Assembly (NCBI GenBank): GCA_001724265.1
Contig: MEDY01000066.1
Coordinates: 62,001 to 126,000 of the forward strand
Length of the DNA stretch: 64,000 bases
Source of the DNA: Rhizaria sp. SCN 62-66
Lineage: Eukaryota
Direction of reading: 5' to 3'
The position numbers and the translations under genes were made by a program. The notes under the pieces are model-generated. The model did not search any database, was not told the DNA's origin, and saw nothing but the letters and a program-made list of their open reading frames with translations. The first letter of the stretch is position 1; each line of letters opens with the position of its first letter. Positions 1-64,000 of the stretch are shown piece after piece.

Positions 1-1046
1 TGTTGTTGTTTGTGTTATTCAACTCACTCCAGTCACTCAGCTCGCAGTCGCTTGAAATCTTTTGAATTTGCTGCTGCTTCTGCTGCTGTTGCTGCTGGTG
101 TTGCTATTTCTGCTGCTTCTTCTGTTGCCTCAGCCGCTGTTTCTGCTCGCGCGCCGCCTTCGCCGCCTTGGCGTTGTCGTCCTGCTGCTGCTGCAGCCGC
201 GCGTCCTCGGCCCAGCGCGCTGAGGCGAGCATGTACCTTGTCAGCGATTCCTCTATCTCGTCGGCGACGTTAGCTGCAGCGGCCGCAGCAATTGCAGTCG
301 GAGCAGTCGCTGTCGAAGGCGTGTCGGGAGAGCCTGCAAGTGCACTGGCTGCGCTGTTGTGAGTGAAGCCGTTTGTGTTGGGAGGAGCCCAGCGGCGCTG
401 TAGCGTTGACAACGACTGCAGCAGTGAGTGGCTGTCGTTATCGTCGTTGTCAGCACTGGTTCTAGCAGTCGCATTATCAACCACAGGTGTGGCAAAAACT
501 GAGACAGGAGCAGTTGCGTTTATAGCACTAGGCGCAGGAGCAACTATGTTGCGACTACTGACGCCAGCGTTTCCATTAACGCTGCTATTGCTGCTACGAA
601 TGTTGGCAGTGACGCTCGCGAGTAGCAAGTCGGTCTTGACGTCCTCCGCAGTGCTGCCGTCCGTGAGCGTGGCCAGCGCGGCGTCTTCCGCGACGACGGA
701 CTCCAGGTAAGACCGCAAGCGCGTCTGCGCCCAGCTCGTGTACTCGTCCATCGGCGCAGCAGGGGTGGTGTCTGCCGTAGCGGCGGGCTCAGCGTCGGAG
801 GTAAATGTGGAGGAGGCTGGCAGCGTGGTCGGATCAGCTATGGGGACCTCGCTGAGCCAACGAACAGGAAAGAAAAAAGACGTGAATAGGGACACAGATA
901 AGCCACAGTCAAAAGAAAACACGCGGATATGAATTAAAATCGATTAACACATAGACGTACGTGTCAACACCTGCGATAGAGCAGATCATAATCTTTGTCG
1001 CGGGACTATTGTCCTTCCAGCGGACGCTCATGGTGCTCGTGTCCAT
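1..1046 (-). CDS. Hypothetical low-complexity protein with a poly-Gln tract; runs off the window edge if TAG 104-106 is read as sense. Exons 1046-961 and 851-<1
   Basis: ATG at 1046. Intron 960-852 (GTACGT...CAG) joins MDTSTMSVRW...GVDT to EVPIADP in frame. After TAG 106-104 the frame stays open for 34 codons (QHQQQQQQKQQQIQK...) to the window edge. A further upstream exon is possible (in-frame acceptor at 1077). Confidence 0.6.
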
Positions 1047-1709
1047 GGTGCTTTCCGGCGAACCGCGCTTGGAGACCTATACGTTTAAGACAGAAACTAT
1101 GATTTAAATATAGTATATAAACGTATTAGTTAAATAACTTTACTCAACCAATTTTCAACTTAACGAACAAACCACATCAAAATAGAACTTATTTGAGAGC
1201 TACTTCTTCTAGCCGTTGGAGCATCAACCGCAGTGGATCGATTGGTCAATTAGTCACCCAATCAGGCATTTGTTGTAACTCAGTGTAATGACCGCCAACA
1301 TTCACGAAATGAAACAAACGTGCACTATAATACCCCAAATCATCATGTAATCATCGTGAATCATGATCTGGCGGACAACTAACTCATCTCGACGCTTATA
1401 CAGTTGGTTTAAAAACTTTGTTTATTTGTTTATTTGTTTATTTCTTATTTTTCTTGTTCTACGCTACATAATAATAGCTTAGTAATATGATCTATGTTAC
1501 ATCCTACATATAAAGTGTTCCCCAGAATAACACCACGCGAGAAAAGAAACCTCTCACTCACATATCCCTCCTTAATCCTGCGGCAAAGCCCTCACCATTA
1601 ATCGCACACCCGACAGATCGATCGCCGCTTTATAAACTACAGCAGCAAAACCTGTTCTCCCCTCGCTTTCCCGCATCGTTAACAGTCACCAGGATCGCGT
1701 CCGAGCGCT

Positions 1710-4700
1710 TTACCAGGCGTGGCCGCCGCGGAAGCCCTGGCGCTGGTCCTGAAGCTTCTCGACGCGCTCGGAGAAAAGCTGGACCTTGTCCACGAACTGC
1801 ATCGCGAGCCGCTGCGCGCGGCTGACCGCGGGCGCAGTCACACGCAGGCACTTGCCCACGGTCGCCGCGGCCGCCGCGGCGGGGTCCTCCCACGCGGCCG
1901 AGAGCAGGCCCGCGTACATGAGCTTGGAGGCGACCGAGACGACGTCGTCCTCGGACATCTCGTACTTGGCCACGAGGTCCGAGAGCGAGATGGTGGTGTA
2001 GGCCGCGCCGTACGTCAGCAGGAACACGCGGAGCGCCTCCTTCTTGATCTTGGCCTAAGGAATATAAAACAAGCAGAGAGAGAACAAAGCATAGAAAAGC
2101 AGAGTGAGATATTGATGTGTGACGCAAGAAACACTCAACATAAGCATGCATTTTACATGTGAGATATCGAAGCGAGAATGAGCCATACCTGGAGGAGCGC
2201 CTTGACCTGCTCGCCCTGGTGGACGAAGGACCAGAGGCGGAGCGAGCACAGCGTGGTGTAGCATCCGCGCCAGTCGCCCTCGAAGAGCGCCTTGGTCGCG
2301 CGCATGATGATGTCGCGCGTGACGTCGGCCGACGTGTTGGCAGTCGACGACGCGGCGAACTTCTGGTACTCGCGGCGGAAAACGCGGGACTGGACGCGGC
2401 GGACCTGGTGCCAGCCGACCTCGGCGATGGTGGGGACCTCGACGAGCATGGCGCTGATCATCGACGTCGCGTCGATCAGGTCCGTCAGCGAGAGGTGCAT
2501 GTGGTAAGGCAGCAGGCGCTGGCGCGCGTCGCGGCTCTCCTCCTCCTTGCCCTCGCGGGAAGCAACACCCTGTGGATAGTGACAAGGCAGAGAAAAGGAA
2601 GCGAAAAAAATGAGGATAATCATTAGTACATAAGATGTGATTGATATGAATAAGAATAGAGAAATATAGAATTTAATACTGATTCTGAATATGCTGAAAT
2701 GATTGATATGATTGTTAGGCGTACCTGGCCGAGGAGCTCCTTGAGCTTGTCCTTGATCTTAGGGGTCTGCTGGAGGTCGGTGAGGGCGTGCACGGCGTGG
2801 GTGTAGAGGCCGCGGCGGAAGGCCGCGAGGCCGAGCTGCACCATCACGCGGTTGTACAGGGCGCGGGTCTGGATGTCGAGGTCGTTGATCACATCCTGCA
2901 GAGAAGGAAACAAGGCACAGGGACGATTGTCCAAGTTGAACGACGCGAGAGTTGGGAGAGCGAAAATGTGAGTTCAAATAAAAACAAAGCCATATGAACG
3001 GAATGAAATTGAAATACAGTAAACAAGCAAATAAAACAAACAAAAATACAATTAAATATAAAAGCACGTACCTGAACGTGGGCCGAGAGCAGGCGCGCGC
3101 GGGCCTCCTCGTAACGGTTGTGGATGAGCCACGAGTAGGTCTGGAACAGCAGCGCGCGCACGCGAGCGCGCATGTCGTCGCTCTTGTACAGCGTGTTGGC
3201 GAGCTCGTCGACGAGCGTGGCCGAGGGCGCGGCGGCGGCCGGGGTCGCGGCCACGGCGGGGGAAAGCACGTCGAGCTCGGTGCGGTAGTAGTAGTACTCG
3301 TACTCAATCCACAGGTGAGCGACGCGGGCCTCAAGGCGCGCCTTGTTGATGCTGCGGTAGTAGTCGCGCACGGCCGCGAAGAGCTTCACCAGCGTAGGCT
3401 GCTCGCGCAGACGGTTGACGTACTCGGGCGACGCGTAGTCGGTGTTCTGCAGCGCGCGGTAGAACTCGTTACTGATCTTGAACACATAGGCGTAGAGGTT
3501 GCCCTCGACGAACGTGTACTTGGTCGTGTCCTCGTCGCCGCCGTTGGCGAGCTGCTGCTCGCGGCGCATCTCCTCCTCGGCGCGCGCGCGGCGCTTGGCG
3601 GCCTCCTCCTCGGCGCGCTGGCGGCGGGCCGCCCAGGCCTCGTCCTCGCCGTTCTCGACGTAGTCGTCGACATCGATATCACTGGCGTTGTCCGCCGTGT
3701 CGAACGAGAAGGCGTCGTGCGAGTCGTCCTCGGCCAGCCGCACCGTGGGGTTCTCCTTGAGCGTCTGGAGGATGCGGCCGACGCAGCGCACGGCCTCGAG
3801 CCAGCCGCGCTGCGACATGAGCGAGTCGCGCTGCGCGACGTGGTCGAACTGCAGCAGCGGCACCAGCGACTGGATGCGCAGCAGCGTCGCCGTGTCAGCG
3901 GCCTTGGGCTCCAGCGCGCGCAGCTCCGCGATCGTGGCCGCGAAGTTCATGCCGCGCTTACCGCGCATCGCCATGATCTCGCGCAGGCTGAACGAGAGCG
4001 AGAGAGGAAATAAATGCAAAGATAAAATGAGATTGATGAGAGATATAAAAACAATATTTTGTGAGAATACCATATGAGAAAGAAGACGCCTACATTCAAT
4101 TGATTTGTCATGGTATGATGTGATACATCTTGTCAATTTTAGCGCGTATTTAGATATTATAACACATACCGCTTGTTCATCATGGCAGGGGTGATCTCGC
4201 CCTCGGTGGCAGCGAGCCCGGTGGCCGAGGCCGCCGCGGCCGCCGCGGAGGCCGCGGAGTAGACGTTGGCGCCGTCGGGGCGGTCCTCGTCGTCGTCATC
4301 GTCGTCGTCGTCGTCGCTGTCGGCGGCGCGACGCTGCTGGCGACGGTCGCGGCGCGTCTCCACCACCTTGGGCGCAGCCTTCTCCTTCTTGAGCCAGAAC
4401 TCGCGCGTGATAGTGCCCGAGCTGAGCAGCTTGAGGTCCACCTCGTCGTCGTCGTCGTCAGACTCCGAGTCAGACACGGGCTTCTTGGCGGCGGCGGCGG
4501 CGGCGGCGGCGGGGCGGGGCGCGGGCTCCTCCTCCTCATCCTCCTCGGAGCTAGTGTCGCCGGAGCCGAACGCGAAGCCAGACACGGCCGGGGAGGGCTT
4601 CTTGGCGCCGGCGGTGGCGGCGGGCTTCTTGGCGGGCGCGACGTCGTCATCGTCGTCCTCCTCCTCCTCCTCCTCCTCGGAGCTGGTGTCACCGGACGCG

Positions 4701-5707
4701 AAGAATCCGCTGGAAGCGGCCTTCTTGGGCGCGGCGGCCGCGGCAGGCTTCTTGGCGGCGGTGGGCGCGGCGGCGGGCGCGGCGGCGGCGGCGGCGGAGG
4801 CCTTGGGTGCGGTGACCTTCATGAGCTCCTCCTCGTCGTCGGGCAGGGGAGACTTGCGGTACTCATCGACCTTCTTGGCGAGGACCTTGATGAGCTTTGC
4901 CACGGCCGCGTTGGTGGCCGTCAGCGCGCGCTGGTCGGCCTGTGCGAGCGTGTCCTTGTAGTCCTTGTCGTTGACAGCCGTGGTGGTGCGCTCGTCGAGC
5001 TCGATCACGCAGCGGAGGTACTTCTTGGGGATGCCGGCCTCCTTGATCACCACGACCGTGGTGGGAGCCTGGAAGAGCTTCTGAAGGGCCGTGTACTGCG
5101 TGGAAACGGTCTGCCAGTCCTTCTTGCGGAGCGCAATGCGGATGCCCTTGGTGGTGATGTCGATGGCGTCAAACACCTTGTCCTTCTTGGACTTGATGGC
5201 CGTCTTGCCGCCATCGGCGTCATCGTCGTCGTCCGACTCAACGGGGCGGCGCACAACGGGCGCCTTGGGCTTGACCTGCTCCACCTCGGACTCGGAGGAG
5301 TAGTCGGACTCGGACTCAGTGGTCGTATCGCCGGTGGCAAAGAACCGGCTCGCTGCGGGGACAGCAAAGGGTGGACGAAGGGCGGGCGCAGGCGAGTTGT
5401 GGCGGGGAGTGCACGAGAGTCGGGAGGATCATATGGCGGGAGTGGATGGGGGGGCAATATACGAGGGGAAGATGAGCGCGTGGTGAAATTAAACGACGTC
5501 ATATGTGTGTAAAAGATTATGTCAAGGTTAGGATAAGAAAGAGAGAGCGAGAAGAGTTAGCGGGGACCGGGCGCGATCAAGACCCGGGTGGGCGGCCGCG
5601 CCTCATCAGGACACCTTGGAGCCGACCACTTGGGCCGGCTATATGCGGGCGTTTCAACGCTGAAAGTGACCAGAGACAAATAAATGCATAGATTGTAACG
5701 TACTCAT
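1710..5707 (-). CDS. EIF3C: Translation initiation factor eIF3 subunit c (NIP1), ~999 aa, 6 exons: 5707-5704, 5352-4170, 3987-3072, 2895-2725, 2569-2189, 2054-1710
   Basis: N-terminus MTSRFFATGD...ESES. Conserved eIF3c segments: LQNTDYASPEYVNRLR, LYNRVMVQLGLAAFRRG, RQRLLPYHMHL, and a PCI-like C-terminal region. All five introns are GT-AG; the spliced length is 3000 nt; the stop is TAA. Confidence 0.93.
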
Positions 5708-6486
5708 CTTATACAGAAAACGAGATCTGTTGCCTTAGGGACAGCACTGCTAAAGACGTGGATTTCTCCTCACCAATAGTGCGACGCAATTCGGGGCTAA
5801 GTGGGGACCGACCGCGCCGCCGCCTGCGACAGCCCGGATTTTTCGGAACCTGGCCTCACAGTCACAGATTATCACTTCGCAAAGCGTATTCTTTCAATGC
5901 TGATCTACAATGTGATATTTTCATATCGGCATAATTTTGAGATATAGTGCCTTTGGTTGCTGTTTAAGTAATTTCTTGATATTTTTATTGTCTTAGGTAG
6001 CCGTTGACGGCAAGATATCTGGTGAAGACGTAGCGGAGTGTGTCTGCATCAGACACAATCTCCAGGGAATATGACATCTTAATAAAGGCGTATACAAAAT
6101 TAAACCGCATTTTGTCGATATTAATCTTTTGTTCAGCTTATATTAGGATTTGAGTACTTTGCGTGAAAATTAAGCTTGTTTAATCGAGTCATTTGTTGCA
6201 TCTTTTGTAAGGAAAGCTGTTTCTCGAAGCCGAACTAGTCAAAGTGCAACAGCAGCGACATCTTTAAAGGTCCATAAGTCGCTCCCGTGATCGTCAAGTT
6301 TTGCCTCGTGCTGCTTGCGGATATTAAGCGTGGCACATCTTTCCGCGTTTTCAATTAAACTTTTCCTATTGCTCATTTCCCTTGATATATCGCTCTTTTC
6401 TTACGTAGACTAACTCACACTTGCCGAGCCGTTACCGACCCGTCAGCCCCTCCTTCCCGCTATCCCGCGAGCCTGTTTCAGACTGC

Positions 6487-9400
6487 ATGGCGACGCTGCC
6501 GAACGTCACCGGCGGCAGTAACCCGTACATCTCCGCCGATTTGACTGACGACGCCGTGTTCGCCCACGCCATCAACACTGCCTCGGTCATGTCTCCCCAG
6601 CAAAGCAACACCGGCGCGAGCGCTGCCTATGGCCCTGCTGCGCCTGCGCCTGTGCCTGCTGGCTCGTACTCTGCGCACCCATATACAGCCACGTCAGCGA
6701 GCCGCGGTAACCCTGTTAGCAACACGAACAAACTCAGCTACGGCGACAGCAGGAGCAGCAGCAGCGCTCGTGTCGGCAATGCTCCTCGCTCCTATGCTGC
6801 CTCTACGGCCAGCAGCGCTGGCGCCGGATCAACTGCGGCAGGCGGCTCCTTTGCGTTCCCGTCCTCGTTTTTGTCGTCGCTGTCGTCCGCCGGCAAGTCA
6901 GTCCTCGCCGCTCACAATCGCTACAACACCAACAATAGCGGCAGCAACTGCAACGGCAACTGCGCAGGTTGGCCGACGCCGGGCGCGATCCCGACCCCGC
7001 TAAACGCGCTCTCGCGGGCTCAGCTGACGCACATGCGCAAGCAGTCGCTGCATCAACACAGCGTGAGCAACGGCACCTCTGCGAACAACAGCAATAACAA
7101 CAACAACTGGCGCTTTCTATCGCCGTCGCTGCCGGCCAACTCCTTCTCCAACAACACCGGCGCCGGCAGCAGCAGCGCTAACAGCGGCTCAATCGCGACT
7201 CCCTTCACGCTGGACACGGCCCGTGTGCCCGCTTTCTCCCTGTCTCCCGTCTCTTTGCGCGCGCCCCTGCGGCCGTGGTTCCTGTTGCTGTCGACCGCGG
7301 CGTGCGCGCAACTGCTGCGTTCGCCCTGGCAGGCGCCGCTGCTCGCCATGCACGTCGCCGCGCGCCGCATCCAGCGCTGTGTGCGGCGCTGGCGCGCGCG
7401 GAGGCTGCTCCACGTGCTCGTGACCCACGTGGCCCAGGAACGCAAGACCGGGTTCCTGCGCCGGAAGCTCCCGCTCGTCGCCGCCACGGAGAACGCGCGC
7501 GAGGCGGCCTACCTTCAGCACAATAACAACAACAACAGCAGCAGTAACAGCAACGCGTACAACGGCGGAAGCTCTGGTGTTGGCGGCCTGGGCGCGAGCG
7601 CGAGCGCGAGTGCCGGTGGCGTGAGCGTCAGTTACGCCAACACGTTTTACCCGCGGCTTATCCCGCCGCCGCTGCTGTACGCAGGACCGCTGCCGCAGGG
7701 GCTGCATTACTACGACCACTTACTGCTCACAATGGCGCTGCAACAACAGCAGCAGCAGCAGCTGTTGCAAGGACTCGGACATGGAGGGAATGTAAGTGCG
7801 TCCAACGTAAGTGGGATGCCTCTGCCAGCGGGGCCGTCGCTGCAGGTCTCGCTCGGCTACTGCAGCAACGGCGACGGCGGCACCGGCGCCAACAGTGGTC
7901 ACTACGTCAGTCCGTTCCAGAAGCAGCAGCAGAAGTTGCAGTTGCAGGCTGATGGCGGGATTGGGGCGACGCGGCAATGTCTCAACAACTGCTACGCCCA
8001 GTCTCTGCAACCGCAGTCGCGGCCGCCATCTCAGGCACCGTCGCAGTCACCGTGTACTGCGGTATCACATTATCACTTCTCCCCTCAAACACTCTGCGGT
8101 AGCAGCAACGCGAACACTGTGACAATCGACACGAGCAACATGTACATCAACAACAACGTCAACAGCGGAAGCACTCAGAATGTAAATGCCTGCGGCGGTG
8201 CGAATGTAAGTGCCTTTGTGTCGTACAGCGGCTACGCCTCGGCCCCCGGCCCGGGCCCCCGCCTCACCCATAGTGCGCTCGCGACTGTACCGCTCACGGT
8301 CACCGCTGCGGCGCGCCACTCGCTCAATATCGGCAACAACAGCAAAGACAATAATCGCAACAACGTTGTCGTCTCCGGCAATGCAAGTGGTAGTTTGTGT
8401 AGCTGCGTTGGCTACTCTGCCACGATGCCCTTTTCTCGCTCCCAGTCACCATCTGCTGCCACCACTAGCGATAGCGACACCGGCACCCTGACTGTGACCC
8501 TGCTGCCGTGCTTCTGCGCCCTGTGCACCGCCGTGGCCCACAGTCACTCGCAGCAGGCGCACCAGTCGCAGCAGGCGCTGCTAGCTGCTCTTGCGCTGCC
8601 TGTGCCGCCCCCGTACATCAACCCCTACAACAACAACACGTACTCAAACGCAAACTTTACCAACAACAGTCGGAGCAATAACCCGCAGCTGCAGCACCAG
8701 AGCAGCGCGTTCAACTTGCAGGCCGCGTCCATCGCGTCGTCGTTTTTTTCAGCTCTGCCGCAGCGCGCGGCGACGCTGCACCACTACGGCGTGGACCTGC
8801 GCGAGACGGACTGCGACTACGCGGCCGTGTTCACCGCCGAGTCAGCGCCGCAGTGGGGCGTGCCCTGGCCGCCCCAGGCCTACCTGCCCCTGTCGCAGTC
8901 GCCGCTCACGAACGCGCTCGATGGCCACGAGCAAAACAGCAACAACAATAGCGATCCTAATATTCCTGACCAAAGCAACAACAACAACAACAACGCAAAC
9001 ACTACTGCTATGAATAACGGAGCAATGGCGACTAAGCGCATTGTTTTGGCGCCCGGCTCACTGTCCCTAACGCGGCTTGACTTCTTCTACGCGCACCCGA
9101 TGTACACGGTCGCCGCCGTCTCTCTGCAGCGCGCGTGGCGAACCGCCCGCGCCCGGCGCAGCGCGCGCCGCGCCCGCCTGCCGCTGCTGCTGGCCGTGCG
9201 CGCGGCGCGCAAGATCCAGCGCGCGTGGCGCGCCTACTGCGACAAGCGCGTGTACCGTTACTTCCGCGATTTGGCGCTCGGCCGGCGGCTGGGTGACACG
9301 CTCGCGCTGCTGCGCGCGCTGAACCCGCGCGAGGCGGGGCTTGTGGACGGGGCCTCGGGCGTCTACGTGCGGTTCCGGCTAGCTGGGTTCCCCCCGCGTC

Positions 9401-10791
9401 TGTACTATAAGCTCTACACGGCGCGGCCAGTGACTGATGTTGGCGCGTTCGCGCCGAGGAACTACGCAGCCATCGCCGCGTCGGGCGCCGCGAGCACCGC
9501 GGGCGCCAACAGCAACAGCTCTACCAACAACGGCAAGACAACTGCTGCTACTGGTGCGAATGCAGTGAGTGTGGCGTCAGATCCGAGTAAAGAGTGGTAC
9601 TTGCGTCAGGACAACAACAACTGGCGCCCCGTGGCGACCCACCACATCGCCACGCACCTGAAGCCCAACTTCCAGTCGATCCTGCTCATGACGGCGTCCG
9701 CGCACTCGGCCGCCGCGGCGCACCACCGGGCGTACTATGCCGGCAAGGCGGGGGAGATTGTTAGCGGCAACGAAGGCAAGGCAATGCGCCAATGGGCTCG
9801 GCCTTCTCACACCACGAATGGCAACGGCAAGAGTACTCGGTTCACGAGCACTGCCGGCTCCTCCGACACGACTGTGGGCACTGCGACCGAGGTGAGCGCG
9901 CTCAAGCCGTACCACCCGGACCGGCTTGTGCGCCAGTGGCAGGCAGTTAAGGCGCGCAAGCGGGCCAAGCTGCGCTGGCTGCAGAAGCTCTTCCTGGGCC
10001 GCGGCGGCGCCACAGGCACCGTTATCGTTCCCGTGAGCAACAACAGCGATGCGAGCACGGGTGTGATCTTGAGTGCTCAGAGCGAGCTTAAGCCTCAGGG
10101 CGGCGCAGGTAGTGTAAGTGGGTATGTCAGCGCTAAAGGTCGCTTCAACGGCGGTGAAATGAGCGCTAACAACGCCAGTGTGTACGATTACGGCGATGAA
10201 GATGAGGACGAAGATGCTGACTTTGAATACGACACAAGCAAGCGTGATCGTGGCGATATTCGCATTGCTCCCGGCCAATTCAACCCATATGAATTCTTCT
10301 CGACGAATCTCATCACAACTGGCAACGCTGACTCCACTAACACCGCTGCCCGCGGTCACGGTCGCTCTGCGGGCGCGAGTGCCCCGGGGCGACTGGTTGT
10401 GACCACGGCGGCCGCCGCGGCGTTCCCTACCCTGGCCGCGCTCCTCAGCAACGCCACCGGCAGCGAGAAAGAAGTATTGACGGCTGCGTTCTGGGCGACG
10501 TTAGACGCGGCGGCACAGAAAGATGCCACTGTGGCGCTCAGCAAGAGGGTGAACGCGGAGAAGGCGCGTCAACAACAGCAGCCGCAGCAACGGGCGCAGC
10601 TGCAGCAGCACTCTGATCTCGACAGCGACCTTCTGGGTGATATGAACGGCGATGGCAACGGCAATGTTGACACTGAAGCCATGCTGTCGTGGGCGCGCGC
10701 GCTTGATTACGATAGCTACAGCAGCGGATGGGGACTTGCGGCCACGACAAGGCCTGCAGAGGAGCCGCAGCCTCAGATGAAGCGTCCGTGA
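6487..10791 (+). CDS. IQ-motif protein with a C11orf65/MFI-like domain, 1434 aa, with long low-complexity extensions
   Basis: IQ motifs (ARRIQRCVRRW, SLQRAWR, RKIQRAWR). LNPREAGLVDGASGVYVRFRLAGFPPRLYYKLYT, WYLRQDNNNWRPV and the C-terminal WARALDYDSYSSGW match my recollection of C11orf65/MFI. Single exon; TGA stop. Confidence 0.8.
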   Translation: MATLPNVTGGSNPYISADLTDDAVFAHAINTASVMSPQQSNTGASAAYGPAAPAPVPAGSYSAHPYTATSASRGNPVSNTNKLSYGDSRSSSSARVGNAPRSYAASTASSAGAGSTAAGGSFAFPSSFLSSLSSAGKSVLAAHNRYNTNNSGSNCNGNCAGWPTPGAIPTPLNALSRAQLTHMRKQSLHQHSVSNGTSANNSNNNNNWRFLSPSLPANSFSNNTGAGSSSANSGSIATPFTLDTARVPAFSLSPVSLRAPLRPWFLLLSTAACAQLLRSPWQAPLLAMHVAARRIQRCVRRWRARRLLHVLVTHVAQERKTGFLRRKLPLVAATENAREAAYLQHNNNNNSSSNSNAYNGGSSGVGGLGASASASAGGVSVSYANTFYPRLIPPPLLYAGPLPQGLHYYDHLLLTMALQQQQQQQLLQGLGHGGNVSASNVSGMPLPAGPSLQVSLGYCSNGDGGTGANSGHYVSPFQKQQQKLQLQADGGIGATRQCLNNCYAQSLQPQSRPPSQAPSQSPCTAVSHYHFSPQTLCGSSNANTVTIDTSNMYINNNVNSGSTQNVNACGGANVSAFVSYSGYASAPGPGPRLTHSALATVPLTVTAAARHSLNIGNNSKDNNRNNVVVSGNASGSLCSCVGYSATMPFSRSQSPSAATTSDSDTGTLTVTLLPCFCALCTAVAHSHSQQAHQSQQALLAALALPVPPPYINPYNNNTYSNANFTNNSRSNNPQLQHQSSAFNLQAASIASSFFSALPQRAATLHHYGVDLRETDCDYAAVFTAESAPQWGVPWPPQAYLPLSQSPLTNALDGHEQNSNNNSDPNIPDQSNNNNNNANTTAMNNGAMATKRIVLAPGSLSLTRLDFFYAHPMYTVAAVSLQRAWRTARARRSARRARLPLLLAVRAARKIQRAWRAYCDKRVYRYFRDLALGRRLGDTLALLRALNPREAGLVDGASGVYVRFRLAGFPPRLYYKLYTARPVTDVGAFAPRNYAAIAASGAASTAGANSNSSTNNGKTTAATGANAVSVASDPSKEWYLRQDNNNWRPVATHHIATHLKPNFQSILLMTASAHSAAAAHHRAYYAGKAGEIVSGNEGKAMRQWARPSHTTNGNGKSTRFTSTAGSSDTTVGTATEVSALKPYHPDRLVRQWQAVKARKRAKLRWLQKLFLGRGGATGTVIVPVSNNSDASTGVILSAQSELKPQGGAGSVSGYVSAKGRFNGGEMSANNASVYDYGDEDEDEDADFEYDTSKRDRGDIRIAPGQFNPYEFFSTNLITTGNADSTNTAARGHGRSAGASAPGRLVVTTAAAAAFPTLAALLSNATGSEKEVLTAAFWATLDAAAQKDATVALSKRVNAEKARQQQQPQQRAQLQQHSDLDSDLLGDMNGDGNGNVDTEAMLSWARALDYDSYSSGWGLAATTRPAEEPQPQMKRP

Positions 10792-11032
10792 GCAAAGTGA
10801 TTGTTAACAACGATCCTTGTTCGTTGTTGTTTTACTTATTACAAGTCTACTTAGTTAAAATGTTAATTGATTAATTATCAACTGTGTGTATATCCTATGT
10901 AATAAAGATCATCTTGATTCATTCACTCATCCTTTGCTACTTCAACACGCAGTCACGCGCTAAGTATAAGGAGCACTAAAACAAGAATACGGGCTATGTA
11001 ACAAAACTGGAAAACAAAATCATCCTACAAAC

Positions 11033-12951
11033 TTAAAGCGGCTTTTGTGCGGAGATAATAGCGTAGTGCATTACTCCTTTCTTTGCAACGAACCGCAGTG
11101 CAGCGGCCGTGACCAAGAACTTAATCCAGCGCACAGGCTTGATGAGCGAGCCGAATTGCGCGATATGACGCTATTAACACAAGCAAAATTAAACAAAAAC
11201 AAAATATTACGTATAATTTATCTGCATTCATCATGTTACAATCAGTTTGACTAATGTTTTCTTTCAATATAATCGATAAATCCAGCAAACAATGAATTAG
11301 TTTCATTTGTTGTCGCCAAACGTACATCAATGAAGCTCGCAAAGCCTTCAAATACGCGCGTGTGAACTTTCACGATGGAAACATTTATGAATCCAACATT
11401 TTGCAGCATCTCGGTGTACTTTGACGCCGTCGTGAGATTCTCGCGGGGAATAGACATCCCTTTCGCTGCGATACGCAGCAACTTCTCGCTCAAACCAGAG
11501 CCGGAGCTGCCGGCATCGGTGTGATCGTCGTACTGGCCGTCGGGGAGGACAAGATCGCTCAGAGCAAGCCGTCCCCCGGGACGCAGGGCGGTGATAACGT
11601 CAGCAAAAAAGCGCGCGCGTTGCTCGAAGTGGTACGCCGTGTCGACGCAGACAACGCAGTCGACAGTTCCGACAGGAGCGTGACCGACGGGCGTGTGACG
11701 AGCACGGGCTGAGCGTGCAATAATGCTGTCGGTGAAAGCTCCAGAATTGCTGTTCGCGTCGGTGGGGCGTGAGGCAGTGCTATTCATAGGCTGAACGACA
11801 TCGTCAATGTCACTGTCATAGTCACTGTCATTCATCGTTGAGCCACACGTCTGTTGCTGCTGTTGAGAGAGAATCGTGAGAATATCACTCGAACTGCCTT
11901 GTAGCAACGTGACGCTCTCACATACAACATCGGCATCAGGTACATTAAAATTGCTTGCATTGCCAGCATTCCTCAGCCGTTGATTGCATTGCTGTTGCAA
12001 TAACTTAAGCCGCCTCTGAGCCGAGACGACTTGCGTCGGCGCTAAGTTGACCCCAACAATGGACCGCGGCACTGCCCACGCATGCGGGCACAGCACTGCG
12101 TCGCCATCTAACCGTGAGCACGCGGCTGACTGTGAGCACAAAAGCGACCGCGAGCACGGCGACCTCAGCGTCAGTCCTGCGAGCATGAAGAGCTAGTCGC
12201 CGCAGCCGAACCCCACGCTCAGCACGCGGTCGGGCGCGGCCACCGCGGCGGCGGCGAAGACGGCGGACGCAAGGGACGCGCACGCGGCCGCGTATGTAAC
12301 CGCGCCGGGCACGCTCGCTGACAGCGGTGGGGGCGGCGTCGCTGTTGCAGCAGTCGCAGCGGAAGCAGAGTCAGGGTCAGCGTCTGAGTCAGAGACGGCA
12401 TCAGAGACAGGCCAGAGTCCCAAGTTGCCCCATTGTGAGTGATCAAGATCAAAATTCAGCAAAACGTGCGATAAATCAAAAATGCCGCTTTTGCCAGAGA
12501 CCACCGACGCAGAAGAAGCAGTGGCAGTATTGAGACCAAGACTTGCTGATTTGCCCAGGTCACTATTTTCTGATGTACTCGTTCTATTGGAGCTGCTCAA
12601 CGATGCCACCGCAATGTCGCGAGAGTTAAAAAGCGCGGCAAGCGCCGGAAAGGCTGCGGCGTGCGTGATCGCGTGCAGCGGAGAGAGCGGCGACCAGAGG
12701 AGAAAGCCTAGAAGAAGCAGCGCCGCCCCAGCAGGGTCGCACAAACCGAGCGCCACGGACGCGAATACACGCGCACAAACGCGAACAGCTGTGAATATAG
12801 CTAAATCAATAGAATATAATCCGAGAAATGCGGCGCTAACCGCGTAGGCGTAGGCTGTGTCGCGGAAGAGAGCGTATAAGAGAGTCGTTGCGAAGACGGC
12901 GTAGTGTGGAGGGGCAAGATTTATCACAAGGATCGCCACACCATGTAACAT
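11033..12951 (-). CDS. Class I SAM-dependent methyltransferase with N-terminal hydrophobic segments, ~587 aa. Exons 12951-11326 and 11170-11033; in-frame TAG at 12195-12193
   Basis: WGNLGLW, motif I VLSVGFGCGD*LF, VGVNL, DCVVCVDTAYHF, LRPGGRLALSDLV, LQNVGF. Intron 11325-11171 (GTACGT...TAG) gives the final exon RHIAQFG...YAIISAQKPL-TAA. The two listed ORFs (12193..12951 and 11251..12186) are in the same frame. Confidence 0.85.
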
Positions 12952-13266
12952 GTTCTGAGAGAAATATAATTAAAGGGAAAAGAAATAAATTTGGTTATTT
13001 ATCTTGTTTTTTTCTTTTTTTCTCAAATCAACGATGACATAATACCGATAAGCAAACATGAAGATAGCTCCTCTCACACATCGCAGACAAAGTAAGCACC
13101 ACAACAAGGTCACTTATGATGCATTTTTACGGCAAACACATCGCAACGCCATCCTCCAACCGCACAAATTACCACCATCCCGTCTTTAATACAGTAGGTC
13201 CCCCGTCATACTCTGAATAATACTTCATATAAGTCCATTTACGCCACTCTCGATCAAACAACAGCC

Positions 13267-22999: not shown

Positions 23000-23685
23000 G
23001 GCGGGCGGCAACGGGGGGTAAAACCCGTTAGAACGCGCGGAGTTGTAAGAAAACGACTGTGCAGGAACGCTAGCAAAGGGAAACGAGCGGTGCTGGCAAG
23101 CAGCACTGGGGTCGGGAAGCGGGCGGGGAAGAGGACGGGGCACGAGGTGTGAGCGGCAGCGAATACTGCAAGGTAGACGCACGTTGTAAGCGCATAAATT
23201 GAAATATAACAAAATCGTTTCACTATTCATTGTAAATATCATATCTATATCCGAATATATCAAATATATCCTGTGCCAGCATACGCCGAAGTGAGGCTTC
23301 TTTCAAACTCGATCTGACTCCTCACGACGCAGCTCCAGTCCCACGGTCATCTTGCACTCGAAAAGTTCATGCACAACAGGCTTAATAGGCTATAATCATA
23401 AGACTTGATGATGAAACTTGAATATAGTTTTATTATGAGGTTTTTATATATTATATCAAAATATCGCTTTTACTGACGGAGATCACAGTGATGAACTCGA
23501 AGTCCGATTTCAGCAAAACAAGCGTTTTACGTTTGTGGTGAACTCTACTTTTGGAAGTATAACTGAGTAATAATGCACTGGAACGTTTTAAGAATAAGAG
23601 GATCTCACAAATGCAGTGTTTTTGCATCCTACCAGTTTGCTTTAGTTTCTACAGTAGCACGCCTTGGTTGCTTTCCAGAGACGGG

Positions 23686-41735: not shown

Positions 41736-41790
<55 letters not shown>

Positions 41791-45564: not shown

Positions 45565-45989
45565 TGGCGCCAGAAGGGATAGACGCCTTTGTCTGCAAGC
45601 ACACAACAAATAAGAAATAAAACAGAAAACTAGAGAGAGATGATTAGACCAACACCGAAACCTGAAGCTGTTGATGATGCGGATAGCGAGATATTTTCAA
45701 ATGACAGTTGAATTTCGGTGTCACCAGACGACGGGCTTTGGTGGCCGCCAACTGTCGAGCCGATCCCAGATGCGCTTGTGGTGGGACGGAGAAAAAAGAG
45801 CTTATCACAAGCAAAACTTTACTTCTAAGACCTATAATTAGAGTATATTATACTAAAACAACGATTGCGTTTTGTTTTGTTATTGAAATCCAGACTGACG
45901 GATCTTCTGAACTTCTGCACTCTTTTTCCGCACGCCCTCCGCCACGGCCCCCCACAGCGCCTCGTTCGCTTCCCCCTCTCGCTGCGCCA

Positions 45990-48900: not shown

Positions 48901-50040
48901 GCGGTGGCCGCCGTGGCCGTGGACTTGCCCACGGTCGCGCTTAGCCGCAAGGAGCGACTCGCCCAGGCGCGCCAGCTCGCCGCCGACGCCGAGGCCAGGG
49001 CCGCGGCAGAGGCCAAGGCCGCCGTGGCGGCCGGCGATAACGCCGCCGTCACCATGGCCGGCGCGCTCGGCCTCTCCCTCAGTGGCGGTAGCAGTGGCAC
49101 TGCGAGTGTGAGTGATAAGGCGACGACGGGCGGCGGCGTCAAGCGCGCTTTGGAGAACGACAACACCAAGAGTGGCGACGACGACGACGATGAGTTTAGT
49201 GACAGCGAGATCAGCGTCGACGCTAATTCAGACTCTGACGCTGACTCGAGCTCCGACTCCGAGTCCGACGCCCCCGCTAACGTTAAGGGGGCCAAAGGCA
49301 AGCTCGCTAAGGGAGCTGCGCCCGCCGGCACCAAGGCTCAGGGCAAGGGCGCAGAGCAGTCCAAGGGCCAGGCTAAGGGCCAGAACAAGTCTTCTAAGGG
49401 CAAGTCTAAGGGCAAGCCCAAGGGCGGCAACAGCGACGACGACGAGGAGGAGGGCGAGGAAATCGACCTGGACGCCATCGCCGTGAGCGACAGCGAGGAC
49501 GACCACGACAACAACAGCGCCGTCAGTAAGAAGTCCAAGCTCGCGGCTGCGGCCACCTCGACGGACCCCGTCGTCGCCGCCGCGGCCGCGGCCGCCGCCG
49601 CTGCCGCTGCGGCCGCCGACAAGGCGCGCGCGGAGGCCCGCGCGCTGCGCCGCAAGAAGAAGGCCGTGTACTCGCTGCTCGACCGCGAGAAGCTCCACAT
49701 CAAGCTCGTCTTCGGCGACGACCCCAAGACGGCGCGCGCCAAGGCCGAGGCCGCGGCCGCTGCAGCGGCCGCTGCGGCCGCCGCCGCGCCGGTCAAGACG
49801 GAGGCCGAGCTGGCCGCCGAGGCCGCGGCCGCGAAGGCGCTGGCGCAGGCCGCGGCCGAGGCCGCCGCGGCCGAGGCGGCGGCGCGCGCGGAGGCCGAGG
49901 CCGCGCTGGGCGAGGCGGCCGCGATCGCGAAGCGCACACAGAGCCTGACGTACGCCGTCGAGACGGGCTCGCAGCGGCACAAGGTCAAGATGGTCGCGCC
50001 CAAGTACGGCAAGGGCTTCTTCAACGGCTTCAAGAAGTGA
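45990..50040 (+). CDS. WDR55: WD40 protein, WDR55/JIP5-like (ribosome biogenesis), ~1285 aa. Exons 45990-47930 and 48124-50040
   Basis: HADYICALAL...LVATSADAHFSVYDMRRG...DELTAVEV...SIDTIALVSD...GEDGL|VRL...VLGVVGIH...SIGFDGTVRFWE and C-terminal GFFNGF. Intron 47931-48123 GTACGT...TAG; TGA stop. Confidence 0.78.
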
Positions 50041-51953: not shown

Positions 51954-54900
51954 ATGCCCCCACCTTGGCGCCGCGCGCTATGGTGGCTGCGCTGGTCTCT
52001 GCCGCTCGTTGCCGCGCTGCTCGCAGCCGTTGTCACCACGTCCGCAGCGTTTGCAGCCGAGCCCACTCCAGCCCCCGCGCACGCCACTATGACGTCCGCA
52101 GCCGCAGCAACTTCACCCACACAAGCCCCCGCGCTTGTTGCAAGTGTCAGCAACGTACTGAGCGGGGACAGAGCTGGCGGCGCTGATAGCAATAGTCCAC
52201 ATGACAAGACTGTTGTCACTCCCTCTCGGTTCGCTCGCGCGCAGCAGTACTTCACCGCACCGTCCAACTGGGACCACTACATCCTGCAGCTCCTTATCGG
52301 ACGCTACCACAGCTGGAACCACTTTACTGTGAAGCACCTGATCGTGTTCGTTTGCGCGGTCACGGCAACGCTGTACGTGTATATCATGATCAGCCGCTTC
52401 AAGGCGGTGCGCTTCGGCAAGTACTTGAACAAGATTGCGCCTATTCTGTTCCCCATGACACAAGACGGCCTTCCCTTGAACGGATTCGTCTCGATGATTG
52501 CCACGGTCAACGCGACGACGGCCATTCGCGCCGCGCGGCTCCTGTTTCCCGCGCCGCTGCAGCCCGACACCGCGGGCGCGCCCGCCGTCAAGCACTCGAA
52601 GGAGTACGCGAACTCTTACATCAGCAGTCAAACGCAGAGCACTCTAAGTGGCGCTGGTAGCGTTGTGAGCGACGCAGGGGATAAGCAGGGTGCGCGCGGC
52701 AGAGGCAGCCACAGCAACAACAACAGCGCTGCTGCTGCTGCTGCTGTTGCTGCTGAGACCGCGGCTGTTGCCGTTTTCGCAGGCAACAGGACTGTGTCTA
52801 TCCCCGTCTGGGCAACTCTGGCCCCGTATGCAAGCATTACCACGCTGTACAACACTCACAACGCTGCTTACAGTAGCAGTGTTGACAGCGTTAGCAACAA
52901 CAAACACATACCCTCGCACTCGCGCTTGCAGTCGCAGTTGCTCACTTCAGAGCAACACCTGCCACAGTGCGGCGCTGCTGGTGCTGCCACATTGACTGCC
53001 AACGCTAGCGCTGGTGTTGCTGCGTTGCCAGAGGCCACGGTGCCGGTTGCGGCTGTGGTCGCTGCTGCCGCAGCCCCCGTTGTTGCACAGGTACTTTCAC
53101 TTCGGATTTCTTTGCTAAATTTATGTCAATTTAACCAAAACGTACATTTTTTAATCCTATACTGTGCTTGTATATGAAATTTTACCCATTTTCTCAACAA
53201 TTGTATGAACATATTTTTAACTCTAATCTTTGTGTCTGTGCCGTCTCTCTCAGAGTCACATGGCTGGCTGGGCCTTGCTGTCCCCCACTGCGACCGGCTC
53301 AGTCACAGCATCAGCGCCCTCTATCACGAATAACACTGCTAGCAGCAGCAGCCATAGCGCGAGTATTGCCCACAACCAAGTCACGCTTGGAGGCATCAGC
53401 ACGAATATCGCCTCCTACGGCCATGGCAACAGTGCTGCCTTGAGTCCTGCCGCCGCGGCCTCGCCTCGCAGCGCCACGAGCGCGGGCGCTCACGCTCACG
53501 CCGGGGCAGTGAGCAGTGGCAGTAGTGACACCAGTCCCCGCTCCGGCGCCGGCGCTGCACCGCACGCCGCTTCCCCGCTCGCGCCCCATCACCAGTCCCC
53601 CACCCCCAAGAGCCCCCCCCCCGGCGCCGGCAACGCCGCCACGGCGCCTACCGCGGCCGCCAGCCCAGCCGCGGGCGAGGCCGCGGCGGGCGCCCTCACC
53701 GCATCCGCCCCTGGACTTGGCACCGGCCTCCCGACGTCGAGTTCGTTCGTGGTGGGCTCGGGGCGCGGCGCAGCGCGGCTGCCGCTGCTGCCTGTGCCAG
53801 TGTATGCGCACAACCACCCCTCGATGCGGCTGCTGCGTAACGCGCAGGCCAAGGCGCAGGCCGAGCAGCAGCAGCAGCAGGCGCAGCATACGCCGGCGAC
53901 GCCCGCCGTCGGCGCAGGCACAGGCGCGGCGGCAGCGGCGGCCAATGACGGCGGCAAGATGGGCCACGACGACGACGACGACGAGGCTGACGCCGAGGAG
54001 AAGGACGACACGGATCTCGGTGCGGCTGCGGCGGCTGCGGAGGCCGACGGCGATGGCGCTGGCGGCAAGAAGACGGCGGACAACGCCGCTGGCCTAGCTG
54101 CAGCTGATGAGAACGCTTTAACAGCAACAACGGCGACGACAGTGACAACGGCGAATGCCACCACCGGTGCCGCAGGCTCTGCTCCCGGCGGCGACACGAG
54201 TGGCTGCTGCTCGAGCTCCAAAGCCAAGCAGCCCCGGCGCAAGCTCACGCGCGCTGACAAAGCCAGCGTCATTGCTGCGCTGCCCATCACGCCAGCGCCG
54301 GCGCCCGCGCTTTCCTTGGCTCCGGAAGCGGCGGGTGCCGGCGACTCGGCCGCCGCTGCGGCGAGCAGGGGCGTAGTTGGCCCTTTAGGCACCTCGCTCG
54401 GCGATTCTGCAATGAGCAAGAACAGCCGTCCGGGGGCAGCAGCTCATGCTGGTGTGGCCGTGGCGAGCAGCGGTGTCGTGAAGTTTGTCGACAACAGCGG
54501 GCCAGTGCTGGTGGCGGTGCTGCTGCCATGCTCGCTGCCCACCATCACTCTCGACCCCTTGACTGAGAGCAATGTCAACAAGAGAGGCAACAATAATAAC
54601 TGTAAGACGAACAAGAGCTGCGTTCAGAGCGCGAGGGCGAATGCGAATGATAACCCGAACATGTTGAGTATCAACGTCCTTGGACCGGGTGTCAACAGCG
54701 TTGTCGGTGATTGCAACAATGATGCTGCCGTTCTTGGTTGTGGCGGCGTCGCTCGTGGCGCGAACAGTTTGAACCACAACATGGGCAGTGTTGCTGTGGA
54801 TGCCCCTCTTGCTGCGGCTGATGTTGCTGCTGCGTCTGCCAATGCGATCGTTCAGGAGGAGCTCGACGACGACGAAGAGGAGGAGGACGATGGTGTTCTG

Positions 54901-57798
54901 GTTTACAACTCGATTGCTGCCGCTAACATGAACTCTTTGAATAACAACGCGAATGCTGCTGCTGCTGCTGTTGGCGGCGGCGTTTACGCTGCTCCAACGG
55001 CGGCAACAACCACCACGGGCGCGCCTCTCAACAGTGATCACGCTCTGCATCAGCCGAAGCCGCAGTCGCAGTTGCTTTATTCTCATTCGCAGCTGCAGCA
55101 GAGACTTGGCCTCGGCCTCGGCCCTGACCAGCAAGCACAGACTCAAACGCAGACCCAAGCACGGACGCAGGAGCCAGCGCAGGGACAGGGTTCCGGCTTG
55201 AGTCAAGGGCCAGGTCCTCGGCAACGGCGGCGCAACAAGCACAACTGCACTGGAGGCTATGCTGCCGGTGCTGGCGCGAGCCGCCGCCCGGAGTGGCGGT
55301 TCAGTCCCATCGCGCTGTCGGCAATGCAGAGCGCGACCGCTGTTGCCGCGCCCGCCGCCATCGCGACTGCGCCCGTTGCGCCCGAAACCATGTACACGAC
55401 CGCGCTCCCGCAGCCACTGCCGCAGTCTCAACAGCCCCAGTCAGAGGCTGGGACGGCGGCGGTGGCAACATCTGTCGGCGGCAGTGACCCCGTGAGCGGC
55501 GTCGTCACTGGAGCGGACGCGGGCGCGGCGGCGGCACTGTGGGCGCTGCTGGGCGACGCGTTCGCGACGCTGGAGCGCGACTGCTCGCTCTGCGGCGGGC
55601 TCCCGCTGCCGCTGCCGCAGCCGCTGCCGCTGCCGCAGTTTTATACGCAGTTGCAGCCGCATGTGGTGGTGTCGCTGAGTCGGTCGGGCGGGTATAACCC
55701 GATTTACCCTCCGCATTGCCACTCGCACGCCGCGGACGCTGTCGCGCACGGCGTTGGACTGCGAGTGAGCGAGTACCACGGCTGCCCTCAGTGCGGGAAC
55801 GGGTCTCTGCGCAAGAGCAAGCACAGTCATCATAACCACCGTCATCACAGCAGCGCAGTTAACAGCGCCGTCAATAGCCCGAACAAGCAGTTCAAGCACG
55901 TTATTTCGAGCTATAACAACACTGGCACAACGCTCTACTCACACCAGCAGCAGCAGCTCCAGCAGTTGCAACAGCAGCAGCAGCAGTACCATGCTCACAG
56001 CCCGAGCCGCATCGTCGCCGACCGCGGCCTCAGCTCTGACCGTGAGCAGCACAGCCCCGACCGCGCCCACGGTCGCGACCGTGAGCAGCGGTCGCAGCAG
56101 CCGTATCGGCCGCAGTATCAGCGCGGGCGCGACCGCGGGCGCTGGGCCAGCCGATCCGTGGCGATGGAGGGCGCGACCGTGAGCGACATCGGCGGGCACA
56201 GGGTCTCGCTGTTGCCACTGTTCGCACCTCCGTCACCGCAGCCTGTACAAGCGCCCATCCAACAGCAACATCTGCATCAGCAGCAACAACCTCAGCCCAT
56301 GCAACCGCTGGCAGCTATTGCAGGCCCTCCAGTCGTGAAGTCTCTCGCAACGGCGACGGCGAAAAACAGCGCGAGCACCGCGAGCGCGAGCGCGAGCGCG
56401 AGCACAAGCACCGCGGCCAGTTCGTGGTGTTTGCACAAGTGCGTGACGGAGACGCTGTCTTGCCGCTGTTTGCTCACACTCACGTCTTTTGCCGCACCGC
56501 CGACACCGCCTTTTGCGGATCCTCCCACTGCATCTGACAACAGCAACGCTGATGGCACTACACAAGCACAGCAGCAGCTCCCGTCGTCATCGTTGCCACA
56601 GCCACGGCCGCAGCCGCGCCTGCTGCCGCCGCCCGCGGCCCCGCAGCCCCCGCGCGTGTCGGTCCCCTCGGCGCCGCTGCTGCTCTCGTACCCGCGTCTG
56701 CTCGCCGCGCTACCCACGGTCACGCGCTGGGTCGTCGCGCGTGCGGTCGCGCCCGCCGCCGCCGCCGCGCGCGCCGCTCTTAACGCAGCCGTCTCCGACA
56801 ACAGTTTCAATACCAGCGCGAATGCCAGCGTTACATTGCCGTCAGGCGCAAATGCACGCGTGAGCGGGCGCGAGCGCGAGCAAGAGCTCGGGTTCGAGGA
56901 GCAGCAGCAGCTGTGGCTGCGTGCGCGGCGGCGCCACGAGGCCCGCGCTGAGCTGCTGCGGGCGCAGTCGCGCGCGCTGCGGCGGCCGGGGCTGTTGTGG
57001 TGGCATCCAGACCCGCAGCGCCGCGGCGGCGGCTTCGGCGGCGACCTGGCCCGGCTGCTGCTCACGGTGAGCGCCGCCGCCGGGATCGGCAGCGAGGGCC
57101 TCGGCGCGACTGCGGCGGCGGCGACTCAGAACGAGCATGCTGCTGCTCATGCTGGCGCTGGCCACAGCCGGAGCGCAAGTGATGGTGAGCTGTTCAGTGC
57201 GAGCGCGGGCGCGGGTGCGAGTTCGAGTGTGAGTGAGGGTTCCAGTGGCGATGGTGGTGCCAGACAGCGAAGTGTTGATGAGCTAGCATATGCCTATGCA
57301 TACTCGAGCTCTGCGTGTGCGCAGTCGCTTGCACCTGTGCTCCTGTCTCTCTACGCGTTGTACTCCGCTTCCGTTCCAATCCCGCATACTCACAACTTTG
57401 GTAACAGCACAAGCGCTCCTTCTAACGAGGTGACTGTGAGCAGCATGGGTACCGCTGTCACGGGCCAACTGACCGTTAGCCATCAAGATCTCCACTTGGC
57501 GCTCCACTTGCTGATCGCTCTTGCCCGCTGCACGCGGCGCGAGGCGTGGCGCGCGTACCATTCCGCGGCGGCCACTGCGGCGGCGGCAGCGGGCGCGGTT
57601 GCCGCGGCGGAGGCGGCGGAGGCCGAGGCTGAGGCTGAGGCAAGGGCCAGGGCCGAGGCGCAGGCTGAGGCTGAGGCGGAAGCTGCAGCCGCGGAGGCTG
57701 AGGCGGAGGCGCGGGCTGAGGCCGAGGCAGCTCATATGAGCTATAGCTACGTCAATCGCGACGGTAGTTTCTATGGCTATCGGTAGTACCCCAAGTAA
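51954..57798 (+). CDS. Large hypothetical membrane protein (signal peptide, one TM helix, long low-complexity region), ~1890 aa. Exons 51954-53090 and 53254-57798 (ends at 57786 if TAG is a stop)
   Basis: Hydrophobic N-terminus and a TM segment (LIVFVCAVTATLYVYIMI). Intron 53091-53253 GTACTT...CAG joins the two ORFs in frame. Ends CGG TAG TAC CCC AAG TAA. Confidence 0.7.
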
Positions 57799-61759: not shown

Positions 61760-63538
61760 TCACACCGCTTTGCGCGCCCGCTTCGATGTGTGCGTCACGT
61801 CCTCATCCTCCGCCTCAGCCACACCGGCGCTGCTTGCAAACTTGCCAGCTGCAGCGGCGGCCGCTGCAGCCGCGGCAGGGCCAAGGCCAACGCTGCCGTC
61901 GGACATCGCTGCGGGCGGCTGCTGCGCGGCCTTGACGGGCGACAGCGGCGGCGTGACGTCAGACCAGCTGGACCCAGTCGCAGCGGCAGCCCCAGACGCA
62001 GCCACAGGAACAGTGTCAGTGACAGCTGTGGCAGCAGCATCGGCAGCGGGAGCAGTCGCGTTGCTTGCCCTCTCGGCACTTCCGCTGCTGACCGATACAG
62101 CCAAAGGCGCGGCCACAGGCACAGGCGCAGGCGCGACGCCGACCCCCGGGATCTTGGCCTCAATCGCACCCCGCCCAATACCACTTCCAGCGCCAGCGCC
62201 AGCGCCAGCTGCCGGGTCGGCGTTCGCGTAGGAGTGTGGCAGCTGCGGGAGCGCCGCGGCGGCGGCGGCGGCGCCCTCGAGCGCGTCCCTGGCGGCTTCG
62301 GTGGCGGCCTCGGCCAGCCGCGCGGCGGCGTCGCGGGCGGCGCGGCGCACGGTGTCGCCCGCGGCGGCAACGGCGGCGGGTCGGCCGCGCAGTGCGGACG
62401 CGATGAAGGCCTCCGCCGCGGCGGCCACGGCCTGCTGCAGCGCCGCGCGCGCCTCGGCCACGGAGACCGAACCGACCCGACCTGCAGCGCTGCTGCTCTC
62501 GGTGGATGCGCTGCTATCCGCGGGGTCTGATTCGGGGGTCAGGGCGGCGGCGGGGAGCGCGAGCGGGACGCTGGCCGCCAGCGCCAAGAGCCACACGGGG
62601 GCGGACGCGGCGGCCGGCGCGGCGGAGGCGGCGGCGGCGGCGGCGGCAGATGCTGCAGCCGCCGCAGGCGCCGCGGCAGCAGCTGGAGCAGGAGCAGGAG
62701 TGGGGACTGCGGCGCCAAAGGCGGGGGCGGCCGCGCCAAACGAGGGCGCCGCAACGCCGAAAGCGGGCGCGGCAACGCCGAACGCCGCCACGGGGGCTCC
62801 AAAGCCACTGCCGCCGCCAACAACAGCAGCAGCAGCAGCGCTAGAAGCAGCAGCGCCGTAGGGCGGCGCAGAGACACCAGCGGCAGCAGCATGAGCCGCC
62901 GTGGGCGTGTGCGCCGGCTTGCCGTGGGCAGCGGCCCCGGAGGCAGCGGCAGCGGCGGCGGTGGCGGTGGGATACTCCTTTTGGTCGGTGAGGAGGTTGT
63001 AGTCGACGCCCAGCGCCGCAGCGAGCCCGCGCACGACGGCGGGGTTCGGCGGGATGCAGCGCTTCTTCCAGATGCCCAGCTGGCGCTTGATGGCAAGGAA
63101 GGACACCGAGTTGGGCGCGAGCACGAGCGCGACGCGCGCCACGGCGGCGGGCAGCACGGCCGAGAAGGCGTCCAGGTAGGGCGCGCAGTCGCGGTGCTCG
63201 GTGCGCGTCGAGCGGGTCATGATCTCATTCGCGAGGTAGAAAAGCGCAAGAATCTTGTCGCCAGAGGTCTCGGACTCGACGGCAGAGAGCCAAGTAGACT
63301 GGGGTAGGAGCGCGGGGCAGTGCAGAGCAGAGGGAAGATAAGTTGAGAGACATGAGCGGAGGCTGGACTTCAGACGAATGTAGTGAGTGGCGATATAGGT
63401 GTTTTGATCGTTAAGGAAGCAGTTTTAGAGACGTACACTAACTTCCTCAAACTTTTTAAAGAAAATAGCCCACTCAGTGATTGCACCGATCGAGGTTGGG
63501 TCGCCTTTGAGCTTGGCGAGTTTGTCGCGGAAAGACAT
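61760..63538 (-). CDS. RNA polymerase II CTD-interacting domain (CID/RPR) protein, ~546 aa. Exons 63538-63437 and 63298-61760
   Basis: MSFRDKLAKL..PTSIGAITEWAIF, KILALFYLANEIM and IKRQLGIWKKR are CID hallmarks. Intron 63436-63299 GTACGT...CAG; TGA stop. Confidence 0.8.
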
Positions 63539-64000
63539 CGCACACCCAAGGGATCTGGAGAAGGAGTACGAAGCAGAGATGACATTGTGAACAAACATCT
63601 CAAATAGAGCGCAGAGTTTAGTATGTATATTATATGGAATCGGAAGCGATTTGTCAATTAACGGATTCTTGAGCGCTTTGGCTCTCACTCAATTTCGTGA
63701 CCGTTGTGTGGCCACAGGTGCTTCCTCTTGCAGCTGGCTAAGCAACACGCATACAAAAACACTCTTTTAAGTTAAAATCGTTGAAAGTAGAGTGTTTTAA
63801 GGCAGAACCTTGCATGCGGCACTGAATACACATGTTTCATATAATAACTTATATTTTAGTTGCTGAAGTGTGTATATAAACGCGATTTGTATTGCCGCAA
63901 CCAACCCAACTCGAGCGCTCAAAAGTAGATCGCTTTCTTTGGCATAGGTGGCGTAGGTGCTCCACGAAAAAAAGAGCAGCCTTTCAAAGCGAGAAGATAG

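Follow-up and report, generated by a model that had tools for sequence, protein, structure and literature searches.

Does the organism behind this stretch of DNA read UAG as glutamine? The stretch, 64,000 nucleotides of contig MEDY01000066.1 from Rhizaria sp. SCN 62-66 and here called the window, was described in an earlier note as probably using a variant nuclear code in which UAG encodes Gln and UAA and UGA are kept as stops. The proposal drew on two in-frame TAG codons at positions where Gln was expected, one at 12193-12195 in a methyltransferase gene and one at 104-106 in a gene that we call gene A. We favor another answer, to which we give a probability of roughly 0.6: the code is standard, with a CAG>TAG nonsense allele at 12193-12195, a reading that fits the numbers better than a variant code does. 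As the evidence stands, a variant code is not shown for the window; the observation itself is real for one codon, that at 12193, and the accompanying tally of gene ends is roughly right.

An in-frame UAG at a conserved glutamine

The TAG at 12193-12195 lies on the minus strand (CTA on the plus strand) and is codon 253 of the methyltransferase gene, directly 3' of the sequence for GFGCGD (motif I). Exon 1 (11326-12951, minus strand) extends from the ATG at 12951-12949 to the last codon before a GTACGT donor at 11325; the corresponding database protein P0003 begins MLHGV, and two high-scoring segment pairs fall in one frame. A 155-nt intron (11171-11325, minus strand; GTACGT...AATAG) separates exon 1 from the last exon (11033-11170, minus strand), which is in a different frame, ends with TAA at 11035-11033 and matches residues 389-423 of the homologue P0002 by tblastn (46% identity over 35 amino acids, E 4e-7). 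The raw open reading frame (ORF) ends at another TAG, 11251-11253, which lies within the intron and is no gene end. The strain of run X4 has TAA there, a change that is silent about the code because 11251 is intronic. The gene matches Pfam family PF08241 (Methyltransf_11; E 3.1e-6, residues 420-469). Its predicted product is a membrane-anchored class I S-adenosylmethionine methyltransferase with an N-terminal membrane segment, in which the GxGxG of motif I and the C-terminal part of the fold are encoded in one frame.

Alignments of P0002 and P0001 by tblastn both crossed the TAG at 12193 in one frame, with homology on either side. Opposite the stop in GFGCGD-stop-LFML, P0002 has Q (GFGCGDQLFML) and P0001 has E. 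A scan of metagenomes with a methyltransferase alignment fetched 20 loci, all of them distant at 22-47% identity, and Q stood next to the motif in all 19 loci (13 distinct sequences) that carried it; this post-motif residue was outside the search pattern. No stop occupied the Gln column in any homologue compared (P0001, P0002 and the 19 metagenome loci). None of the 20 loci was a second copy of this methyltransferase locus, so they offered no sister-species comparison.

The stretch 3' of the TAG is GC-rich, matches a similar insert in P0001 and is colinear over 11510-12159 with a polyadenylated (polyA) RNA contig of run X5; it is therefore exonic. An intron that would remove the TAG was rejected, as the GFGCGD and LFML flanks are both homologous and contiguous. 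No intron can excise exactly this codon, and the mRNA therefore has a UAG in frame at a conserved Gln position. Among in-frame TAGs this is the single testable codon (n = 1); it does fall on a Gln column, but a CAG>TAG mutation predicts the same.

The interrupted reading frame recurs in public assemblies. P0003 (252 residues, ending GFGCGD) is present on three contigs from Logan and the European Nucleotide Archive (ENA), and P0009 (311 residues), which begins with the ATG that lies three codons past the TAG and is identical to the window, is present on two further ENA contigs. No full-length read-through form was found, either among 8,000 scored candidates (two matches, at 40% and 29% identity) or among the six matches of a "shorter" search. 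Recurrence of the stop among several assembled contigs makes a one-off assembly error unlikely; the Logan and ENA assemblies may share reads or stem from one reactor lineage.

Codon usage and the case for a nonsense allele

Across 31 coding segments from about 20 genes (15,706 codons) we counted 425 CAG and 73 CAA codons, 498 Gln codons together, and no internal stops. Sense TAG contributes one certain codon and one possible codon linking coding stretches, at most 0.4% of Gln positions. As an ordinary Gln codon, TAG would be expected about 83 times, judging by TTG:CTG (93:478), a synonymous pair that differs at the first base. The widespread in-frame UAG expected of a UAG = Gln code was not found: one or two TAG codons stand against 498 CAG and CAA.

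With the codon usage of the window, 69-70% of single-base nonsense changes yield TAG, and 18-42% of these strike CAG. A TAG at a Gln position is therefore the likeliest look of a plain nonsense mutation. In a genome so rich in G and C at third codon positions, TAG is the product of about 70% of random nonsense mutations, and as many as about 40% of these TAGs arise at CAG; one or two such sites are what ordinary mutation yields and cannot support a claim about the code.

We therefore propose that a recent C>T change in the conserved CAG after motif I produced the TAG at 12193-12195. Normal reading of the UAG would end the protein after 252 residues, ahead of most of the methyltransferase fold, and would leave a null or nearly null allele of a gene that is otherwise intact and still transcribed. 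Some full-length protein could in principle return through a near-cognate tRNA-Gln at UAG-C. The TAGs at 104 and 57784 would be ordinary terminators at two of 19 gene ends, not an unusual share for a stop codon.

Several observations weigh against a nonsense allele. Apart from the TAG, the methyltransferase gene is perfect (frame intact, intron correct, last exon conserved), and polyA-RNA contigs of a strain 1-2% divergent from the window overlie portions of it. Every database contig covering the site, three for P0003 and two for P0009, ends the ORF there, and no CAG form was found among them; if the TAG is an allele, it would therefore be the major one in the sampled populations, which may all represent one reactor lineage. 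Three further points would suit a sense TAG. The in-frame stops in the roughly 20 genes are TAG only, with no in-frame TAA or TGA, and no frameshift was noticed in the long ORFs. In gene A the frame remains open, with a coding-like score, for 34 codons past the TAG. Finally, the one clear TAG end, at 57784, has a TAA at +4, whereas a TAA or TGA that close was found at 1 of 16 TAA/TGA ends.

Possible recoding of UAG

Most of these observations count in favor of the best-surviving alternative, a variant nuclear code in which a cognate tRNA-Gln(CUA) decodes UAG as Gln genome-wide and termination is left to UAA and UGA. Usage this low would make it a young change or a case of ambiguous decoding. 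It is supported by a TAG whose column holds Q in P0002 and in all 19 motif-bearing loci, within an intact and transcribed gene, and by a stop that is reproducible (three plus two contigs, with six more for gene A). The second TAG lies in a Q/K tract and is followed by coding-like sequence, none of the 31 coding segments holds an in-frame TAA or TGA, and the only clear TAG end has its backup TAA. On the other side stands usage of at most two TAG against 498 Gln codons (at most 0.4%); the documented UAG = Gln cases, cited below, range from 8 to 32%. "Probable" was accordingly too strong a word, and we regard such a code as possible but unlikely.

Should the organism nevertheless be recoded, which we likewise doubt, it would be a flagellated wastewater-reactor protist with UAG at fewer than 0.5% of Gln positions, at the earliest stage of a reassignment and with UAG possibly still partly terminating. 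It would then add one more independent case to the UAG-only reassignments and be the first with almost no sense usage, another UAG = Gln code but one of unusually low usage. It would also bear on how stop-codon capture starts, that is, on whether it passes through an ambiguous intermediate or through disappearance of the codon.

The second TAG, at 104-106, is present, again on the minus strand, within the Q/K-rich tail of gene A, which continues in frame as QQKKQQK, stop, QHQQQQQQKQQQ; the end of the gene reads ...QQKKQQK-TAG-QHQQQQQQKQQQIQK.... Gene A (107-1046, minus strand) consists of exon 1 (1046-961), an intron (960-852; GTACGT...CAG) and exon 2 (851-107), with the frames checked by hand. 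Its TAG (104-106, minus strand) is either a terminator or an in-frame codon. The 34 codons beyond it (2-103, minus strand) are open to the window edge, with a GTGAGT near position 27, and score as coding-like, at 0.34 in frame versus -1.02 to 0.24 after 17 TAA/TGA ends. This score is weak: it is partly driven by CAG repeats, and its value is -0.37 for the sequence 3' of 12193, although homology marks that sequence as coding.

Gene A had no homologue but itself (one match among 1.84 billion representatives). P0010 corresponds to residues 40-254 of the gene A query, and the 215-residue ORF that ends at the TAG is on six contigs (JGI/IMG, Logan and ENA), with no longer variant in its cluster. The TAG at 104-106 may simply be the gene A terminator. 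Both TAGs of the original proposal are thus where they were said to be, on the minus strand; the expectation of Gln holds for 12193, after motif I, while gene A has no homologues against which to set it.

Gene ends speak to the code as well. Ten TAA, five TGA and one TAG had been reported; our models have nine TAA, eight TGA and one TAG (57784), plus the TAG of gene A, so the earlier tally was roughly right. The TAG at 57784 ends a 1519-codon ORF (53227-57783, plus strand) and is followed by TAC CCC AAG TAA (57784-57798, plus strand), which confirms the in-frame TAA four codons later that had been described. In the homology search, the C-terminal 404 residues of the ORF extended to that TAA (53227-57795) had no match. 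Among the 16 TAA/TGA ends computed, a TAA or TGA followed within four codons in one and any stop that close in two. The methyltransferase end, a TAA, has its next in-frame stop, a TAG, at +13, and with this gene included any stop lies within four codons after 2 of 17 TAA/TGA ends. As to whether UAG terminates here, TAG 57784 has its TAA at +4, the gene A frame is open to the window edge, and neither C-terminus has homologues.

Caveats apply to these gene ends. The TAA at 48024 is no gene end of the WDR55-like ORF (45705-50040, plus strand): from a GTACGT donor at 47931, splicing to the acceptor that ends at 48123 gives a phase-0 join to an acidic or lysine-rich ORF (48124-50037). Five of the eight TGA ends (10789, 26489, 43030, 50038 and 61760) sit in a donor-like G/TGAG (GTGAGT or GTGAGC), and some of these may be exon ends and no true gene ends.

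Many other in-frame TAGs at ORF borders in the window are nothing but YAG splice acceptors. The TAG at 14146-14148 (minus strand) is the acceptor of the PAN2 intron 14362-14146, and each further in-frame TAG that borders a coding segment (2055, 14146, 19048, 42211 and 48121) is likewise an acceptor or intronic; that at 6406 lies at an ORF border in AT-rich sequence. Codon-score scans for stops flanked by coding sequence proved too noisy: antisense frames passed and the true site failed.

ARAGORN found no tRNA genes of any kind in the window, Rfam had no matches there, and no eRF1 gene lies within the 64 kb. The EF-Tu-like gene at 32635-34641 resembles eEF1A and is no release factor.

Possible read-through or sequencing error

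A standard code combined with read-through of the methyltransferase UAG at a useful rate, by near-cognate tRNA-Gln at UAG-C and possibly as regulated expression, would also account for an otherwise intact and transcribed gene. The base after the TAG is C at 12193, as it is at 104. The context UAG CUC UUC, however, contains no motif of the CAR-YYA type, and the UAG with what follows, 103 nt in all, is no more stably folded than shuffled sequence (z +1.43, with 192 of 200 shuffles equally or more stable). No homologue has a stop at the Gln column. We consider such read-through improbable.

That the TAG is a sequencing or assembly error for a true CAG is very improbable: the site adjoins a very GC-rich stretch and 12193-12224 is spanned by none of the contigs listed for runs X2-X5, but the same truncated ORFs occur on the three contigs of P0003 and the two of P0009 in Logan and ENA, whose reads may be shared. 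Of the two alternatives that the earlier note had itself named, error is thus weakened and a nonsense allele, the reading we prefer, stands.

Runs X2-X5 were compared over positions 1-20000, with 1-111 skipped as repeat. One X2 contig ends exactly at 12192, where a repeated 20-mer was looked for and none was found. X2 and X3 belong to different coded studies but agree in every contig and depth; they probably represent a single data set deposited twice and should count as one. Relative to the strain of X4 and X5, the coding indels are multiples of three (+3 at 8357 and -12 at 11809, the latter downstream of the TAG in the methyltransferase gene), and indels that are not multiples of three lie at 1249, 5510, 5754, 5760, 11198-11203 and 13015.

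Source organism and gene content

The GC content of the window is 53-68% per 4 kb. The DNA is eukaryotic, with GC-rich exons and AT-rich introns and spacers, and introns have GTACGT, GTACGG or GTACGA at the donor and YAG at the acceptor. Bioreactor, wastewater and activated-sludge metagenome runs contain sequence near-identical to the window, and the organism is an uncultured, intron-bearing, GC-rich eukaryote of such metagenomes.

Genes were identified by Pfam or PDB sequence search. They include eIF3c (1713-5428, minus strand; five exons) and a very large PAN2 (13267-23302, minus strand), which comprises at least five exons and carries long low-complexity inserts; its introns, such as 14362-14146 and 19757-19592, are AT-rich, and its last exon (14145-13270) holds the DEDDh exonuclease part. 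The eEF1A-like gene (32635-34641, plus strand) matches solved eEF1A with E 6e-181 over ORF residues 139-586 and has a tail of about 80 residues that finishes in a K/D repeat run (KKDKKDKDD...). A SHIPPO (sperm-tail PG-rich) repeat protein (27673-28260, plus strand) suggests that the organism builds flagella or cilia. Further genes encode a phytochelatin synthase and Misato-like, ACBP-domain, Rce1-like, WDR55-like, CRT-like and CID-domain proteins. A scaffold gap of 15 N (39327-39341) lies within the ACBP-domain gene and the frame shifts across it; ORFs 39310-42210 and 38790-39494 form this one gene, which ends with TGA at 38787.

Comparison with known systems

Leaky termination at UAG by near-cognate tRNA-Gln is known from yeast and plant viruses, with Gln commonly inserted, and C after the stop is the weakest termination context in eukaryotes. 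The methyltransferase site resembles these cases in that its UAG is followed by C and differs from them in having neither a known stimulatory hexamer nor a downstream structure. Adenosine-to-inosine editing of the fungal type, UAG to UGG, would put Trp at the Gln column.

If recoded, the organism would follow NCBI table 15, the pattern seen in the ciliates Hartmannula sinica and Trochilia petrani and in the fornicate Iotanema spirale, in which UAG is the sole reassigned stop and encodes Gln while UAA and UGA are kept. The one testable TAG of the window, like those of UAG = Gln organisms, falls on a conserved Gln. In Iotanema, UAG accounts for about 8% of Gln codons (204 in-frame UAGs over 126 genes) and for 0 of 119 apparent coding-sequence ends (PMC5304391). 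In Hartmannula and Trochilia, UAG makes up 18.5% and 31.8% of Gln codons, respectively, with 78-84% of genes containing UAG (PMC11687900). In contrast, the window has one or two TAGs in about 20 genes and one or two apparent TAG ends. The codes in which UAG encodes Leu, those of the rhizarian exLh and of the TARA phyllopharyngean genomes, likewise involve UAG-only reassignment, uncultured protists and environmental sequence; unlike here, the amino acid is Leu and genes contain many in-frame UAGs each. Suppressor tRNA genes were found in two of three TARA phyllopharyngean genomes (PMC11687900).

Natural nonsense alleles and young pseudogenes of wild microbes provide the remaining comparison. 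The locus departs from typical nonsense alleles in that no CAG allele was present in the assemblies searched and, 12 kb away, there is a second TAG followed by coding-like sequence. It resembles them in showing one CAG>TAG transition in a gene that is non-essential and otherwise intact.

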